Positions 1 to 7,919 of a DNA stretch of 13,042 nt are shown here, in pieces; position 1 is the stretch's first letter, and each line of letters starts with the position of its first letter. The position numbers and the translations under genes are program-made. Source of the stretch: a virus (lineage: Duplodnaviria; Heunggongvirae; Uroviricota; Caudoviricetes); the IMG/VR virus record IMGVR_UViG_2585427782_000003, positions 1-13,042 of that record; one strand, 5' to 3'. The notes below the pieces were generated by a model that saw only the letters and a list, made by a program, of their open reading frames with translations, searched no databases and had not been told where the DNA came from.

Positions 1-221
1 TCCAGGTGACGTTAACCAGTTAACAATTAACGCCGGATACAGAGAATCCACCCATAACACTGTTTTTGGTTTTAACTGTTCCGCGTGCGCTCAGCCGCAT
101 TCACCGCATCACAAAATTCACTTTAAAAAGGGCGGCAGAGCAGTCACGGAGTAAAACTGATACCGCCAAACGTCACCAGAAAATTGATAACAGGGGGCGT
201 TGCAGCGGGGTTGTCACTTAA

Positions 222-368: not shown

Positions 369-1394
<1,026 letters not shown>

Positions 1395-1593: not shown

Positions 1594-2280
1594 ATGACCC
1601 CAATAAAAATATTTATGACTATTGCTGATTTCAAACGGCCTAAATTGGAGCTCCCAAACGGGGCAAACAAACTACTACTGCACTCTTGCTGTGCTCCATG
1701 TTCCGGTGAAGTGATGGAGGCGCTTCAGGCCTCGGGAATCGACTACACCATCTTTTTCTACAACCCGAACATTCATCCTCAGAAAGAGTATTTAATTCGT
1801 AAGGATGAAAATATTCGCTTTGCTGAACAACACGGCGTGCCGTTTATCGATGCTGATTACGACACCGACAACTGGTTTGAACGTGCCAAAGGAATGGAAT
1901 GGGAGCCTGAGAGGGGGATCCGTTGTACCATGTGTTTTGACATGCGTTTTGAGCGGACAGCGTTGTACGCTGCTGAAAATGGTTTCAGTGTGATCAGCAG
2001 TTCACTGGGCATTTCACGCTGGAAAAATATGCAGCAGGTTAACGAGTGTGGGCGGCGAGCTGTTGCGCATTATCCGGGTATGGTGTACTGGGATTATAAC
2101 TGGCGCAAGCAGGGCGGCTCGTCCCGTATGATTGAAATCAGCAAGCGCGAAAAATTCTATCAGCAGGAATATTGTGGCTGTGTGTATTCTCTGCGCGATA
2201 CCAATCTACACCGCAAATCTCAGGGACGCCCTCTTATCAAAATTGGCCAACTCCACTACGGAAAAGAAGAGAAGGAGTGA
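1594..2280 (+). CDS. queH: Epoxyqueuosine reductase QueH-like protein (DUF208 family)
   Basis: 228-aa ORF with the N-terminal [11 protein letters not shown] cysteine motif and further conserved Cys (CTMCFD, CGC) typical of QueH/DUF208; no obvious Shine-Dalgarno at the annotated ATG. Confidence 0.7.
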
Positions 2281-2517
2281 TTTTATGGATCACCTTTCTG
2301 ATTGATTTCATATTGGCGAGGTGACGTGAGTTAAGTAGAATGGCTGCGGGTGCTTGAGGCTATCTGTCTCAGGCATGAACACTGAAAGGCAGATAGAGAA
2401 AAGCCCCAGTTAACATTTCGCGTCCTGCAAGACGCTTAACATTAATCTGAGGCCCAATCTATGTCTCACAAATGTAGGTTAGCCTCTTACGTGCCGAAAG
2501 GCAAGGGGAAGCAGGCT

Positions 2518-2673
2518 ATGAAGCAGCAAAAGGCGATGTTAATCGCCCTGATCGTCATCTGTTTAACCGTCATAGTGACGGCACTGGTAACGAGGAAAGA
2601 CCTCTGCGAGGTACGACTCCGAACCGGCCAGACGGAGGTCGCTGTCTTCACAGCTTACGAACCTGAGGAGTAA
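2518..2673 (+). CDS. hok: Hok/Gef-family membrane toxin (type I toxin), HokD/RelF-like
   Basis: 51-aa product MKQQKAMLIALIVICLTVIVTALVTRKDLCEVRLRTGQTEVAVFTAYEPEE, one residue different from E. coli HokD as recalled; the six-frame ORF 2461-2673 is an in-frame upstream extension of this. Confidence 0.85.
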   Translation: MKQQKAMLIALIVICLTVIVTALVTRKDLCEVRLRTGQTEVAVFTAYEPEE

Positions 2674-3114: not shown

Positions 3115-4170
3115 GTGCGGGTATTACTTCGACCTGTTCTGGTACCGGAACTCGGGCTGGTGATCGTTAAGCCGGGCCGTGAATCCATGCCGGTATTCCA
3201 CAATACCCGGGTACTGGTGGAGCCGGAACCGAAAAGCATGCGTAATCTGCCGTCCGGGGTCGTTCCTGCCGTTCGCCAGCCGCTGGCGGAGGATAAATCA
3301 TTACTGCCATTTTTCAGCGACGAACGAGTGATTCGTGCTGCTGGTGGCGCTGGCGCATTGTCTGACTGGTTACTGCGCCATGTTAAATCCTGCCAGTGGC
3401 CACACGGCGATTATCACCACAGTGAAACCGTCATTCACCGTTATGGTACCGGCGCAATGGTGTTGTGCTGGCACTGCGACAACCAGCTGCGCGACCAGAC
3501 CTCCGAATCACTCGGGCAACTTGCTCACCAAAACCTGTTTGCATGGATGATTGACGTCATACGCCATGCAATGAATGGCTCGCAGGAACGGGAATTATCG
3601 CTGGCTGAATTATCCTGGTGGGCGGTCCGCAATCAGGTGGCGGACGCGCTACCGGAAGCGGTATTACGTCGTTCGCTGGGGTTGCGTGCGGAAAAAATCC
3701 GCTCAATGTACCGTGAAAGCGACATCGTACCGGGAGAGCAGACCGCCACCAGCATACTGAAGCAGCGCACAAAAAATCTTGCGCCGCTGCCTCACGCCCA
3801 CCAGCAAAACCCGCCACAGGAAAAGACGGTGGTCAGCATTGCCGTTGATCCGGAGTCACCGGCTCAGTATCTCCAGCGCCAGAAATCACAACGGGAAGAG
3901 ATGCCTGTATACACGCGTTGGGTAAAAACGCAGAAATGCATGACGTGTGGCAATCAGGCAGATGATCCGCATCACATCATTGGTCATGGACTGGGAGGGA
4001 TGGGAACAAAGGCTGATGATTTGTTTGTTATTCCGCTGTGCCGTAAATGCCATAGCGAACTACACGCCGGGGTAAAAGATTTTGAAGAAAAACACGGCAG
4101 CCAACTGTTGTTGCTGATTCGTTTTTTAATGCACGCGAGAAATTCGGGTGTTTTGAAGTGGAAAGCATAA
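3115..4170 (+). CDS. DUF968/YdfU-like phage protein with C-terminal Cys/His zinc-binding (HNH-like) motif
   Basis: 351-aa ORF starting at GTG 3115, 4 nt after GGAGG (3106-3110); C-terminus contains CMTCGNQADDPHHIIGH...CRKCHSELH; sits upstream of rusA and Q as in Qin-type nin regions. Confidence 0.75.
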   Translation: MRVLLRPVLVPELGLVIVKPGRESMPVFHNTRVLVEPEPKSMRNLPSGVVPAVRQPLAEDKSLLPFFSDERVIRAAGGAGALSDWLLRHVKSCQWPHGDYHHSETVIHRYGTGAMVLCWHCDNQLRDQTSESLGQLAHQNLFAWMIDVIRHAMNGSQERELSLAELSWWAVRNQVADALPEAVLRRSLGLRAEKIRSMYRESDIVPGEQTATSILKQRTKNLAPLPHAHQQNPPQEKTVVSIAVDPESPAQYLQRQKSQREEMPVYTRWVKTQKCMTCGNQADDPHHIIGHGLGGMGTKADDLFVIPLCRKCHSELHAGVKDFEEKHGSQLLLLIRFLMHARNSGVLKWKA

Positions 4171-4551
4171 ATGACTGAACGCATAGAATTTGTTTTGCCT
4201 TACCCGCCAACGGTGAACACTTACTGGCGTCGTCGTGGCAGCACATATTTTGTATCAAAAGCCGGGGAGCGTTATCGCCGGGCAGTGGCGCTTATTGTTC
4301 GCCAGCAGCGGCTGAAATTAAGCCTGTCCGGAAGGTTGGCAATAAAAATTATTGCAGAACCACCGGATAAGCGCCGCCGTGACCTGGACAATATTCTGAA
4401 AGCGCCGCTGGATGCGCTGACGCATGCGGGGTTGCTAATGGACGATGAGCAGTTTGATGAAATCAATATCGTTCGTGCTCAGCCAGTATCTGGTGGACGT
4501 CTGGGGGTGAAGATTTACCCCATAATGCTTGAAGGGCAGGTCAAAAAATGA
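4171..4551 (+). CDS. rusA: RusA-family Holliday junction resolvase
   Basis: 126-aa ORF; N-terminal LPYPPTVNTYWRRRG and central RRRDLDN motifs resemble E. coli RusA; start codon abuts the previous stop (TAAATG). Confidence 0.9.
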   Translation: MTERIEFVLPYPPTVNTYWRRRGSTYFVSKAGERYRRAVALIVRQQRLKLSLSGRLAIKIIAEPPDKRRRDLDNILKAPLDALTHAGLLMDDEQFDEINIVRAQPVSGGRLGVKIYPIMLEGQVKK

Positions 4552-5369
4552 AACTGGAAGATTTACCGAAATACTACTCCCCAAAATCCCCCGGCCTGAC
4601 TGATGCATCGGCCTCAACGTCGAAAGATGCGCTGAGTATCACTGATGTGATGGCCGCGCAGGGCATGACACAGAATCGGGCTGAGATGGGGTTTTCTGCG
4701 TTCCTTGGGAAAATGGGCATTAGTATGAATGACAGAGAGCGGGCAACAGAATTGCTGACAGAATATGCACTCAGTCGGTGTGATCGCGTGGCGGCGTTAA
4801 GAAAACTCCCGGCAGAAATAAAACCGGTAGTGATGCGCATTATGGCTTCGTACGCTTTTGAGGATTATGCCCGCAGCGCAGCGAGTAAAAAGCAGTGCCC
4901 TTGTTGCTATGGGGAAAAATTTATTGAAAGCGTAGTTTTTACAAACAAGGTCCAGTATCCGGATGGTAAGCCGCCGGTATGGGCAAAGTGTACGAAAGGT
5001 GTGTATCCGTCTTACTGGGAAGAATGGAAAAAAGTCAGGGAGGTGGTAAAAGTTGCCTGTCCGGAGTGTGGCGGAAAGGGTGAGGTTTCCACCGCCTGTA
5101 AGGATTGCCGTGGGCGTGGTGTCGCCATTCATCGTGAAGAGTCGGTAAAACGTGGTATGCCTGTTATCAGAGACTGCCAGCGTTGTGGTGGTCGTGGCTG
5201 TGAAAGGCTACCATCAACGGAGGCATTTAATGCCATATGCAAAGTGACGAGTGCTATCACGCTTGATACGTGGAAAAAATCAGTGAAACGCTTTTACGAT
5301 ACGTTGGTGGTTCGGTTTGACATTGAAGAGGCATGGGCGGAGCGGCAGTTAAAGAGGGTAACGCGATAG
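4548..5369 (+). CDS. Late-gene antiterminator Q-like protein with DnaJ-type zinc-finger repeats
   Basis: 273-aa ORF overlapping the rusA stop (ATGA); carries CPECGGKG, CKDCRGRG and CQRCGGRG (CxxCxGxG) repeats plus CPCCYGEK; lies immediately upstream of a lambda PR'-like promoter, which is the main basis for the Q assignment. Confidence 0.7.
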   Translation: MKLEDLPKYYSPKSPGLTDASASTSKDALSITDVMAAQGMTQNRAEMGFSAFLGKMGISMNDRERATELLTEYALSRCDRVAALRKLPAEIKPVVMRIMASYAFEDYARSAASKKQCPCCYGEKFIESVVFTNKVQYPDGKPPVWAKCTKGVYPSYWEEWKKVREVVKVACPECGGKGEVSTACKDCRGRGVAIHREESVKRGMPVIRDCQRCGGRGCERLPSTEAFNAICKVTSAITLDTWKKSVKRFYDTLVVRFDIEEAWAERQLKRVTR

Positions 5370-5374
5370 TGTTG

Positions 5375-5430
5375 TTGATTTTTCCCGAATCTGTGGTAAA
5401 TTTGCTCTAACGATGGGCGTTTTATGCCTG
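5375..5430 (+). promoter_or_regulatory. PR'-like late promoter with putative qut site
   Basis: TTGATT (5375-5380), 16-nt spacer, TAAATT (5397-5402), then TTGCTCTAACGATGGG, which closely resembles the lambda PR' -10/initial transcribed region as recalled (GGGTAAATTTGACTCAACGATGGG). Confidence 0.55.
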
Positions 5431-5451
5431 ACGTTAGAAGATTTTTTACAC

Positions 5452-5473
5452 CCCGCCGCCTGGCGGGTTTTTT
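5452..5473 (+). terminator. tR'-like intrinsic terminator
   Basis: Hairpin CCCGCC-GCCT-GGCGGG (5452-5467) followed by TTTTTT (5468-5473), about 50-65 nt downstream of the putative PR' start. Confidence 0.6.
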
Positions 5474-5595
5474 ATGACTGAAATCGCGTCAGTACAGTAA
5501 ACGCGCTGGTGGCGGTGAATACCTGTCTTTCAGCTTGCTGGCTTTTTCGACAAGAGTTATTGGTGTGTCACGTTAACCGGAAAAGGGAAAAAGAC

Positions 5596-5807: not shown

Positions 5808-5943
5808 GTGGTAAATGGGCGGCTGGTGGGTGTTAGGGGCACCCACCAGCCATCTGCTCATGCGTTGGGTTCACAAGCAAACCTCAGGCCCACTGCTTTG
5901 CGCAAAAGCAGAATGAGCCTATCAGAGACAGGCTTAATGATCC

Positions 5944-6993
5944 ATGCTTAATACTGTAAAAATATCCAGTTGTGAGTTAATCAACGCCGACTGCCTGGAA
6001 TTTATCCGGTCGTTACCCGAAAATTCTGTTGACCTGATAGTTACGGACCCGCCGTACTTTAAAGTGAAGCCTGAGGGCTGGGATAACCAGTGGAAGGGCG
6101 ACGATGATTACCTGAAGTGGCTGGACCAGTGTCTGGCGCAGTTCTGGCGGGTGCTGAAACCTGCCGGAAGTCTTTACCTGTTCTGTGGTCATCGCCGGGC
6201 ATCTGATATCGAAATCATGATGCGTGAACGCTTCAGTGTGCTGAACCATATTATCTGGGCGAAGCCGTCCGGACGCTGGAACGGATGCAACAAGGAAAGC
6301 CTGCGGGCGTATTTCCCCGCCACAGAGCGCATTCTGTTCGCGGAACATTATCAGGGGCCGTATCGTCCGAAAGATGCCGGGTATGCGGCGAAGGGCAGTG
6401 CACTGAAACAGCATGTGATGGCCCCGCTGATTTCTTACTTTCGTGATGCGCGCGCGGCCCTGGGGATAACGGCAAAACAGATTGCAGATGCCACAGGAAA
6501 GAAAAACATGGTGTCGCACTGGTTCAGTGCCAGTCAGTGGCAGCTACCGAACGAAAGCGATTATCTGAAATTACAGTCGCTGTTTGCCCGGGTGGCAGAA
6601 GAGAAACATCAGCGCGGTGAACTGGAAAAGCCCCACCACCAGCTGGTGGATACGTATACGTCACTGAACCGGCAGTATGTGGAGCTGCAGAGTGAATATA
6701 AGCATCTGCGGCGGTATTTTGGTGTGACGGCGCAGGTGCCGTACACGGATGTGTGGACACATAAACCGGTGCAGTTCTATCCCGGGAAACATCCGTGCGA
6801 AAAACCGGCAGAAATGCTGCAGCAGATAATCAGCGCAAGCAGTCGTCCGGGTGACCTGGTTGCAGATTTTTTTATGGGCTCAGGTTCAACGGTAAAAGCT
6901 GCACTGGCGCTCGGGCGTCGTGCGATTGGCGTTGAACTGGAGACCGGACGTTTTGAGCAGACAGTCAGGGAAGTTCAGGATTTAATCGTTTGA
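5944..6993 (+). CDS. Orphan DNA amino-methyltransferase, beta class (probably N6-adenine)
   Basis: 349-aa ORF with catalytic motif IV DPPY near the N-terminus (IVTDPPYF) and SAM-binding motif I FFMGSGST near the C-terminus, the beta-class order; no restriction endonuclease gene adjacent. Confidence 0.85.
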   Translation: MLNTVKISSCELINADCLEFIRSLPENSVDLIVTDPPYFKVKPEGWDNQWKGDDDYLKWLDQCLAQFWRVLKPAGSLYLFCGHRRASDIEIMMRERFSVLNHIIWAKPSGRWNGCNKESLRAYFPATERILFAEHYQGPYRPKDAGYAAKGSALKQHVMAPLISYFRDARAALGITAKQIADATGKKNMVSHWFSASQWQLPNESDYLKLQSLFARVAEEKHQRGELEKPHHQLVDTYTSLNRQYVELQSEYKHLRRYFGVTAQVPYTDVWTHKPVQFYPGKHPCEKPAEMLQQIISASSRPGDLVADFFMGSGSTVKAALALGRRAIGVELETGRFEQTVREVQDLIV

Positions 6994-7042: not shown

Positions 7043-7118
7043 GGCCCTTTAGCTCAGTGGTGAGAGCGAGCGACTCATAATCGCCAGGTCGCTGGTTCAA
7101 ATCCAGCAAGGGCCACCA
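7043..7118 (+). tRNA. ileZ: tRNA-Ile2 (anticodon CAU, lysidine type; reads AUA)
   Basis: 76-nt cloverleaf: acceptor GGCCCTT/AAGGGCC, D-arm GCTCAGTGGTGAGAGC, anticodon loop CTCATAA, T-arm GGTTCAAATCC, 3' CCA; close to E. coli ileX as recalled. Confidence 0.9.
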
Positions 7119-7125
7119 TCACATA

Positions 7126-7202
7126 CCGCCATTAGCTCATCAGGATAGAGCGCCAGCCTTCGAAGCTGGTTGCGCGGGGTTCGAGTCCTCGATGGCGGTC
7201 CA
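7126..7202 (+). tRNA. argN: tRNA-Arg (anticodon UCG; reads CGA/CGG)
   Basis: 77-nt cloverleaf: acceptor CCGCCAT/ATGGCGG, anticodon stem CCAGC/GCTGG with loop CTTCGAA, T-loop TTCGAGT, 3' CCA. Confidence 0.8.
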
Positions 7203-7215
7203 TTATCTGTACCCT

Positions 7216-7292
7216 GCGTTGTTAGCTCAGCCGGACAGAGCAATTGCCTTCTAAGCAATCGGTCACTGGTTCGAATCCAGTACAACGCGCCA
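7216..7292 (+). tRNA. argO: tRNA-Arg (anticodon UCU; reads AGA/AGG)
   Basis: 77-nt cloverleaf: acceptor GCGTTGT/ACAACGC, anticodon stem ATTGC/GCAAT with loop CTTCTAA, T-arm ACTGG-TTCGAAT-CCAGT, 3' CCA. Confidence 0.85.
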
Positions 7293-7306: not shown

Positions 7307-7332
7307 GGCTCGCTTTTGCGGGCCTTTTTTTT
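7307..7332 (+). terminator. Intrinsic terminator after the tRNA cluster
   Basis: Hairpin GGCTCGC-TTTT-GCGGGCC followed by TTTTTTTT. Confidence 0.6.
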
Positions 7333-7528
7333 AAATGTCTCACAATTCAGACGGTTGACTGTTGTCTGGTTGGCGGGGAGTTTGTTAAAAGAAACTGGCA
7401 TGGTGAATCCCCCTGTGCGGAGGGGCAATCAGCGAGTAGGTATATGGGATAATCGCGGATTCAGGTGCTGGTACTGAATTCACCGGGAGGCACCCGGCAC
7501 CATGCAATGGCACATAGCGCCACTCTCC

Positions 7529-7560
7529 AGCCCCTCTCCGGAGGGGCTGTTTATATTGAT
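7529..7560 (+). terminator. Terminator-like hairpin
   Basis: Perfect 8-bp stem AGCCCCTC/GAGGGGCT with loop TCCG, followed by a T-rich tract GTTTATATTGATTTT. Confidence 0.4.
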
Positions 7561-7583
7561 TTTGTCAGATGTGAGTAAACTGC

Positions 7584-7919
7584 TTATGGACTTTGTTGTT
7601 TTAGCCCATAAGGACATATTTGCAGAGTGCAACGGTTATTAAAGCATTCATTCAATACGTTATCTGTATTTGTAGGGCATTCCTGGCTGTTTTTGATTAA
7701 ATTCCAGAATGTTTTATTGAATGGTACTACGTTGTAAATGGTTACAGGTAGCACTTTGTTATTGAGCATGATGCCTGTGTGAGTCAGTGTAAATATACTT
7801 TCAGGAGGTAAGAAAGCATCCGATTGATACCAGATTATTAATTTTATTTTACTCCATATGACTGAAAAAGATATTCCGCATGATGGCTGGATAACTGTAT
7901 CAATCACAATCCACTTCAT
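7584..7919 (-). CDS. Hypothetical protein in the AT-rich cargo slot
   Basis: 111-aa ORF opposite to late transcription; AGGA 6 nt upstream of its ATG (minus strand reads AAGGAAACTAAATG); open frame of 111 codons is unlikely by chance in AT-rich DNA (rough estimate, not computed rigorously); product not recognised. Confidence 0.3.

Follow-up and report, generated by a model that had tools for sequence, protein, structure and literature searches.

Genes and Features of the Prophage Region

The window, by which we mean the whole stretch of 13,042 nucleotides of DNA that was analyzed, is the late region of a lambdoid prophage. The features recognized within it are listed below by coordinates and strand, together with the evidence that was used for the assignment.

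130-181, minus strand, match to the DicF sRNA (Rfam, 77 bits)
369-1349, minus strand, IS5-family transposase gene (ORF list)
1594-2280, plus strand, homologue of the epoxyqueuosine reductase QueH, a tRNA-modification enzyme (Pfam PF02677, 221 bits)
2348-2673, plus strand, hok/sok type I toxin-antitoxin (Rfam sok, 120 bits; ORF matching Pfam HOK_GEF)
3115-4170, plus strand, DUF968 gene
4171-4551, plus strand, rusA
4548-5369, plus strand, Q antiterminator gene
5944-6993, plus strand, DNA methyltransferase gene
7043-7292, plus strand, three tRNA genes
7369-7558, plus strand, sRNA gene of the STnc100/PasD family (Rfam RF02076, 133 bits against a gathering score of 47)
7549-8178, no strand, AT-rich iraL cassette of 630 bp with a GC content of about 0.33, flanked by the sRNA terminator and the start codon of the esterase gene (comparison with O157)
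7584-7919, minus strand, iraL coding sequence, 111 codons plus stop (ORF list, protein identity, NCBIfam, PDB 8TWD, PHROG 4407)
7584-7676, minus strand, C-terminal tail of IraL, residues 81-111 (alignment of the four-cysteine motif)
7920-7952, minus strand, iraL 5' UTR of 33 nt, with the +1 A at 7952 and the Shine-Dalgarno sequence AGGA at 7929-7926 (match to published 5'-RACE)
7960-7986, minus strand, iraL core promoter of the sigma-70 type (inspection of the sequence upstream of the mapped +1)
8180-10036, plus strand, SASA-family carbohydrate esterase gene (DUF1737 + SASA + DUF6645; NanS-p-like), divergent from iraL (Pfam)
After the esterase gene, which extends to 10036, plus strand, genes for a P21-type holin, DUF1327/YdfR, lysozyme, and Rz

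The DicF match adjoins the IS5 transposase gene, and the nin-region genes come directly next. The immunity and replication region seems to have been lost or moved, an indication that the prophage is defective and disrupted by the IS element. The 70-residue ORF of the hok/sok locus probably overstates the length of Hok, and the QueH homologue shares the prophage with the three tRNA genes at 7043-7292. None of the complete E. coli genomes matched the window over its whole length; the best match had 81% coverage at 98.8% identity. The GC content of the window is 0.51, and the profile drops from about 0.51 to 0.32-0.39 between approximately 7500 and 8250. The GC content of the ORF under study is 0.35, and that of the adjoining region from 7920 to 8164 is 0.29.

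Identification of the Open Reading Frame as iraL

The ORF begins with an ATG at 7919, ends with a stop codon at 7584-7586 on the minus strand, and encodes a product of 111 residues. A preliminary description, made from the sequence alone, had reported this ORF as the only one of appreciable size in the AT-rich stretch, with an AGGA Shine-Dalgarno sequence at good spacing. The ORF list and the position of the AGGA motif (7929-7926, 6 nt before the ATG) bear this account out. The same description had held that the product could not be assigned to any family, and on this point it was wrong. In a direct comparison the product was found to be identical to IraL from the uropathogenic E. coli strain CFT073 at 111 of 111 residues. 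The NCBIfam model for IraM (NF007393) was matched with 162 bits against a curated cutoff of 121 (E 4.7e-48), and the match spans residues 1-110 of the protein and positions 1-113 of 114 in the profile. The protein is also annotated in RefSeq, where WP_000871291.1 is the entry for both the CFT073 locus and strain FDAARGOS_536 and is labeled "anti-adapter protein IraM". By these comparisons the ORF is iraL, the gene for an anti-adaptor of RssB and a paralogue of iraM from E. coli K-12.

The coding DNA, as read from the alignment, differs from that of CFT073 at a single synonymous position (GGG versus GGA). In PMC4045071 a sequence counts as iraL when it is at least 95% identical to the entire coding sequence of the CFT073 gene, and the ORF in the window falls within this definition. 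A megablast search with positions 7480-8170 as the query located a stretch 100% identical to the window in FDAARGOS_536. The query was present in 2233 of 5426 complete E. coli genomes, with at least 80% coverage in 1428 of them. Among these 1428 genomes, "anti-adapter protein IraM" was the annotation in 19 of the 19 full-length matches listed.

The solved N-terminal beta-barrel of IraM (PDB 8TWD) was found with phmmer at an E value of 9e-32 over residues 1-78 and in a search of the PDB with the family profile at 2e-39. PHROG 4407 matches the product over its full length and is listed by PHROGs as a family of unknown function. A local Pfam scan returned no family for the product, even at E <= 10. 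In contrast to this local scan, the IraL/IraM clusters in the protein database carry a precomputed PF11183 domain. PF11183 is the PmrD family.

The iraL gene is already known. Its name, its mapping, and the biochemical tests of its product date from 2014, and it is routinely annotated by RefSeq. The value of the correction is that RefSeq says "IraM" for the paralogue IraL, which differs from IraM in its regulation and in its binding of RssB. The earlier verdict that the product was unassignable illustrates the limits of reading a sequence without tools.

Conservation of the Coding Sequence

Comparison of iraL with iraM gave a dN/dS of approximately 0.17, with dS near saturation at about 1.5. 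The values for the barrel (0.16) and the tail (0.18) were determined separately. In a first survey of 75 copies of the locus, 3% of the sites in the ORF were variable, compared with 8-18% in the flanks, and there were no indels. This survey was biased because the loci had been picked by protein identity, and it was therefore redone with loci chosen by their 5'-UTR sequence alone, independently of the ORF. The second survey comprised 117 complete copies, of which 116 have an intact frame of 111 codons and one lacks the stop codon. Among the 117 copies, variation is silent at 11 sites and replaces the residue at 10, against an approximately 4-fold excess of positions at which a change would be a replacement. 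The preliminary description had proposed to look in related prophages for a conserved reading frame with an excess of synonymous substitutions. Homologues do keep the frame, and the synonymous bias is present both against iraM and among the UTR-anchored copies.

The copy without a stop codon is on an IMG/VR contig (L208 in our set), where the protein continues beyond ...QQSP as SGVYSHL.... The iraL gene was also found in four deposited E. coli phage records, 252 viral stretches in IMG/VR encode a relative of IraL, and the type strain of E. albertii encodes the identical protein. In E. coli ECGI0523 a relative with 32% identity was detected by tblastn near 1.2 Mb (positions 4001-4318 of locus L011), at a place that has no ORF of at least 80 residues. 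This relative lies near the coordinate of iraM in K-12 (about 1.2 Mb) and may be a decayed, iraM-like pseudogene.

Promoter and Transcription Start Site

[quoted passage not shown] This sequence is found at 7923-7952 on the minus strand of the window, over 30 nt with 0 mismatches and against a chance expectation of 0, and the match places the +1 at 7952. Upstream are a -35 hexamer, TTTACA (7986-7981), a spacer of 15 nt, and a -10 hexamer, TATACT (7965-7960), which is followed by 7 nt to the +1. A spacer of 15 nt is short for sigma-70, and the promoter was missed by a generic scan because the scanner requires 16-18 nt. PMC4045071 predicts sigma-70 -10 and -35 elements for iraL. The preliminary description had suggested a promoter in the AT-rich upstream region (7920-8164), where the published start does map. 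It had also named minus-strand transcription as a point to be verified, and both 5' RACE and RNA-seq have detected it in CFT073 (PMC4045071, PMC12890032). In that strain, shifting the cells to 37 °C increases the iraL (c1429) mRNA by 1.6 log2 units (PMC12890032), and the level of IraL protein is raised in a fur mutant (PMC7157518).

The window and CFT073 share the sequence of the mRNA 5' end and both promoter hexamers, as they share the protein. Three single-base differences were found between them in the promoter and UTR, at the first spacer base after the -35 element, at position -1, and at position -4 from the ATG. The version in the window is the commonest natural variant (47 of 75 copies). 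The -10 and -35 hexamers are kept in most of the 75 copies, and the natural variants of the -35 element are TTTATA and TTTA-A. As a guess, one of these variants may equal the change in iraL2 of JJ1886 that is mentioned in PMC4045071.

These data bear on the proposal that the gene is an intact-looking remnant in a defective prophage, silent or decaying, for example silenced by H-NS or damaged in its promoter, and that it contributes nothing. The IS5 insertion in the prophage (369-1349), the high AT content of the locus, and the three promoter differences from CFT073 are compatible with such a state, as is the occurrence of -35 mutations in some natural copies, whose expression PMC4045071 could not state. 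However, both hexamers are intact in the window, the published +1 sequence is present exactly, and the promoter variant is the commonest one in nature. The ORF is likewise intact and encodes a protein identical to a functional one, and the family is under purifying selection. We regard a silent remnant as very unlikely.

Comparison with IraM and the Binding of RssB

IraL of CFT073 (c1429, formerly ycgW) was reported by Hryckowian et al. to be 58.9% identical to IraM and to be encoded on the potB island (PMC4045071). In our alignment, the product of the ORF is 62% identical to K-12 IraM (b1160; PDB 8TWD, with RssB) without gaps over 107 residues. [quoted passage not shown] Salmonella RssC belongs to the same iraL-iraM-rssC family, with approximately 49% identity to iraL (PMC4045071). 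RssC was not retrieved in a word-seeded protein search with IraL.

The function of IraL was established in CFT073 (PMC4045071). [quoted passage not shown] IraL was found to act independently of stress, in log phase. [quoted passage not shown]

The crystal structure of the IraM-RssB complex contains three clusters of contacts (PMC10844676). [quoted passage not shown] Cluster II is identical at 3 of 5 positions, with two conservative changes, and cluster III at 2 of 4. Outside cluster I, where the contacts are to the C-terminal domain and the linker of RssB, the substitutions are T13S, L75I, H63N, and I64V, and IraL differs from IraM further in having four extra C-terminal residues. The retention of cluster I and the substitutions in the other clusters fit the reported binding of IraL to the N-terminal domain only (PMC4045071). 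We infer from this pattern a possible sequence-level rationale for the difference in binding between IraL and IraM.

The names in RefSeq and NCBIfam would make the gene an orthologue of K-12 iraM, induced by PhoP/PhoQ under Mg2+ starvation and binding both domains of RssB. A PhoP-box-like direct repeat, TGTTTATTGTTTATTTA, is in fact present with one mismatch at 8015-8031 on the plus strand, approximately 71 nt upstream of the +1, and is the sole such site in the window. This site is not beyond chance, since at least one match was obtained in 36 of 200 shuffles, and the same search of the region upstream of K-12 iraM gave nothing better than 2 mismatches. The identity of the product to IraM is 62%, as against 100% to IraL. 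The upstream region can be aligned with that of CFT073 iraL and cannot be aligned with that of K-12 iraM. The genomic context is also unlike that of K-12, where iraM is chromosomal and adjoins e14, while iraL in the window is on a lambdoid prophage. Induction by PhoP under Mg2+ starvation, as known for iraM, differs from the action of iraL in unstressed log-phase cells, and the sequence groups of iraL and iraM reported in PMC4045071 do not overlap. Assignment of the gene as an iraM orthologue is highly improbable.

Protein Features and the Cysteine-Rich Tail

The preliminary description had drawn attention to five cysteines and a hydrophobic N-terminal half. The cysteines are residues 14, 81, 92, 97, and 102, and the mean Kyte-Doolittle value is +0.52 for the N-terminal half and -0.31 for the other. 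The best window of 19 residues scores just 1.44, so no transmembrane helix is indicated. These features are those of an IraM/PmrD-like beta-barrel followed by a tail and not those of a membrane or secreted protein. An AF2 model built from a 13-sequence alignment had a mean pLDDT of 40 and a pTM of 0.32. The order of strands and then helix in this low-confidence model is compatible with the IraM fold. The model is unusable for fold assignment, which rests instead on the sequence similarity to 8TWD.

The beta-barrel of IraM superposes on PmrD with an r.m.s.d. of approximately 1 Å (PMC10844676). IraL resembles PmrD, the polymyxin-resistance connector (PDB 4HN7), as a small connector protein that binds a protein of the response-regulator type. 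They differ in their targets, which are PmrA for PmrD and RssB for IraL. No sequence match to PmrD was detectable; the profile search of the PDB found 8TWD only, and the local Pfam scan found nothing.

In the C-terminal tail the motif CP-x9-C-x4-C-x3-ICPYG (C81-P, C92, C97, and I-C102-P-Y-G) is invariant in 13 of 13 aligned proteins of the IraL/IraM family, down to 53% identity, whereas Cys14 is variable in the same alignment. The tail is absent from the structure of IraM, having been removed as proteolytically unstable, and it was called less conserved and flexible (PMC10844676). The pattern of conserved cysteines makes a metal-binding or redox role of the tail possible.

The preliminary description had suggested that the ORF may be a moron for a toxin, for superinfection exclusion, or for anti-phage defense. 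Its position in the cargo region and its opposite orientation are typical of such genes, and PHROGs assigns no function to the family. However, there was no PADLOC match at E <= 1, the protein has no hydrophobic segment of transmembrane grade, and RssB, the target demonstrated for the identical protein, is cytoplasmic (PMC4045071). The known function is the regulation of RpoS proteolysis in the host, and a toxin, exclusion, or defense gene is extremely unlikely. An effect of iraL on phage infection that is mediated by RpoS is conceivable. A chance ORF in AT-rich DNA can be dismissed: open stretches of at least 111 codons arose in 35 of 2000 dinucleotide-preserving shuffles of 7560-8164, so that a length this modestly unusual is weak evidence by itself and the case for a gene is made by homology and conservation, namely the NF007393 score above its cutoff, the solved homologue, the dN/dS of 0.17, the 116 of 117 intact copies, and the genetics and biochemistry of PMC4045071.

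The iraL Cassette and Its Neighbors

Homology between the window and the Stx1 prophage of E. coli O157:H7 ends at 7548 and restarts at 8179, immediately ahead of the esterase ATG (8180). These breaks place iraL on a cassette of 630 bp (GC 0.33) that replaces an O157 spacer of 232 bp (GC 0.48). The match of O157 genomes to the 7480-8170 query is limited to positions 7480-7555 of the window. Judged by this comparison, the cargo slot of iraL is adjacent to, and not identical with, the position of stx in Stx1 phages. A search for repeats from 7500 to 8200 returned only short pairs at the level of chance and no direct repeats at the flanks from which a mechanism of insertion could be read. The start of the esterase gene is probably the ATG at 8180 rather than the start at 8165 in the ORF list, since the RefSeq protein begins at 8180 (MAFKHYD) and the O157 homology resumes at 8179. 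The block that travels with iraL usually extends from approximately 7328-7339 to at least approximately 8399, and it takes in STnc100, iraL, and the beginning of the esterase gene, along with the AT-rich sequence between the last two.

The STnc100 gene is a neighbor of iraL and not a part of it. A terminator scan located its hairpin at 7528-7549; the T-tract is approximately 25 nt from the stop codon of iraL, and the two genes are convergent. Both CFT073 and phage vB_EcoS-640R1 have STnc100 beside iraL, and in O157 STnc100 is located between stxB1 and the esterase gene. A 2026 preprint describes STnc100 as a relative of the PasD sRNA that is associated with esterase genes. Phage vB_EcoS-640R1 has two tandem copies of STnc100 upstream of iraL (positions 5342-5535 and 5811-5999 of locus L005), and the window has one. 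A partial "hypothetical protein" pseudogene annotated by RefSeq antisense to the equivalent of STnc100 is probably spurious. The STnc100 match was also considered as the short late transcript from P_R' to tR', a homologue of StxS, and this was rejected on the ground that the element is downstream of stxB1 in the O157 Stx1 prophage.

The prophage of the window has the same order as that of CFT073, which is Q, the tRNA genes, STnc100, iraL on the minus strand, DUF1737/esterase, holin, and lysozyme. The two differ in that the esterase gene of the window is full length and a DNA methyltransferase gene is present, while CFT073 has a truncated DUF1737 gene and an IS200. The preliminary description had regarded the ORF as an AT-rich, horizontally acquired moron in a cargo slot, possibly with its own promoter upstream. 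This holds true, the prophage is lambdoid, and the orientation is opposite to that of Q and the esterase, holin, lysozyme, and Rz genes. The context of the cassette (630 bp, between STnc100 and the esterase gene and next to the stx site) was absent from the papers examined and is a modest addition to them.

Proposed Function and Significance

We conclude, with a probability of approximately 0.95, that the ORF is a prophage-borne iraL that stabilizes RpoS by sequestering RssB. The protein, the promoter and transcription start sequences, and the genomic position match those of the characterized gene of CFT073, and the gene is under purifying selection. Expression in the window's own host, and RssB and RpoS as the target there, are expected by analogy with the identical protein of CFT073.

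During lysogeny, iraL would be transcribed from its own sigma-70-type promoter with a +1 at 7952 on the minus strand, opposite to the Q-dependent late operon and independently of it. The product of 111 residues is predicted to consist of a PmrD-like beta-barrel (residues 1 to approximately 78) and a cysteine-rich tail, and it would bind the response-regulator-like adaptor RssB, mainly through the N-terminal receiver domain of RssB. RssB held by IraL would not deliver sigma-S (RpoS) to the ClpXP protease, and sigma-S would thereby be elevated even during exponential growth. The lysogen would be armed for stress in advance, which may benefit both the host and the resident prophage.

Two additions to this scheme are possible but appear doubtful. 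One is that the tail is a zinc- or redox-sensing module that would tune the stability or activity of the anti-adaptor. The other is that late transcription or the sRNA would interfere with iraL when the prophage is induced. Late transcription under Q antitermination runs head-on toward iraL, and STnc100 is tail-to-tail with it; induction could shut iraL off through transcriptional interference or antisense RNA. If so, the RpoS level of the host would be coupled to the lysis-lysogeny state. Copies of iraL are found in phage isolates obtained by induction and in E. albertii, which lends support to the idea that temperate phages disseminate a means of raising RpoS in their hosts.
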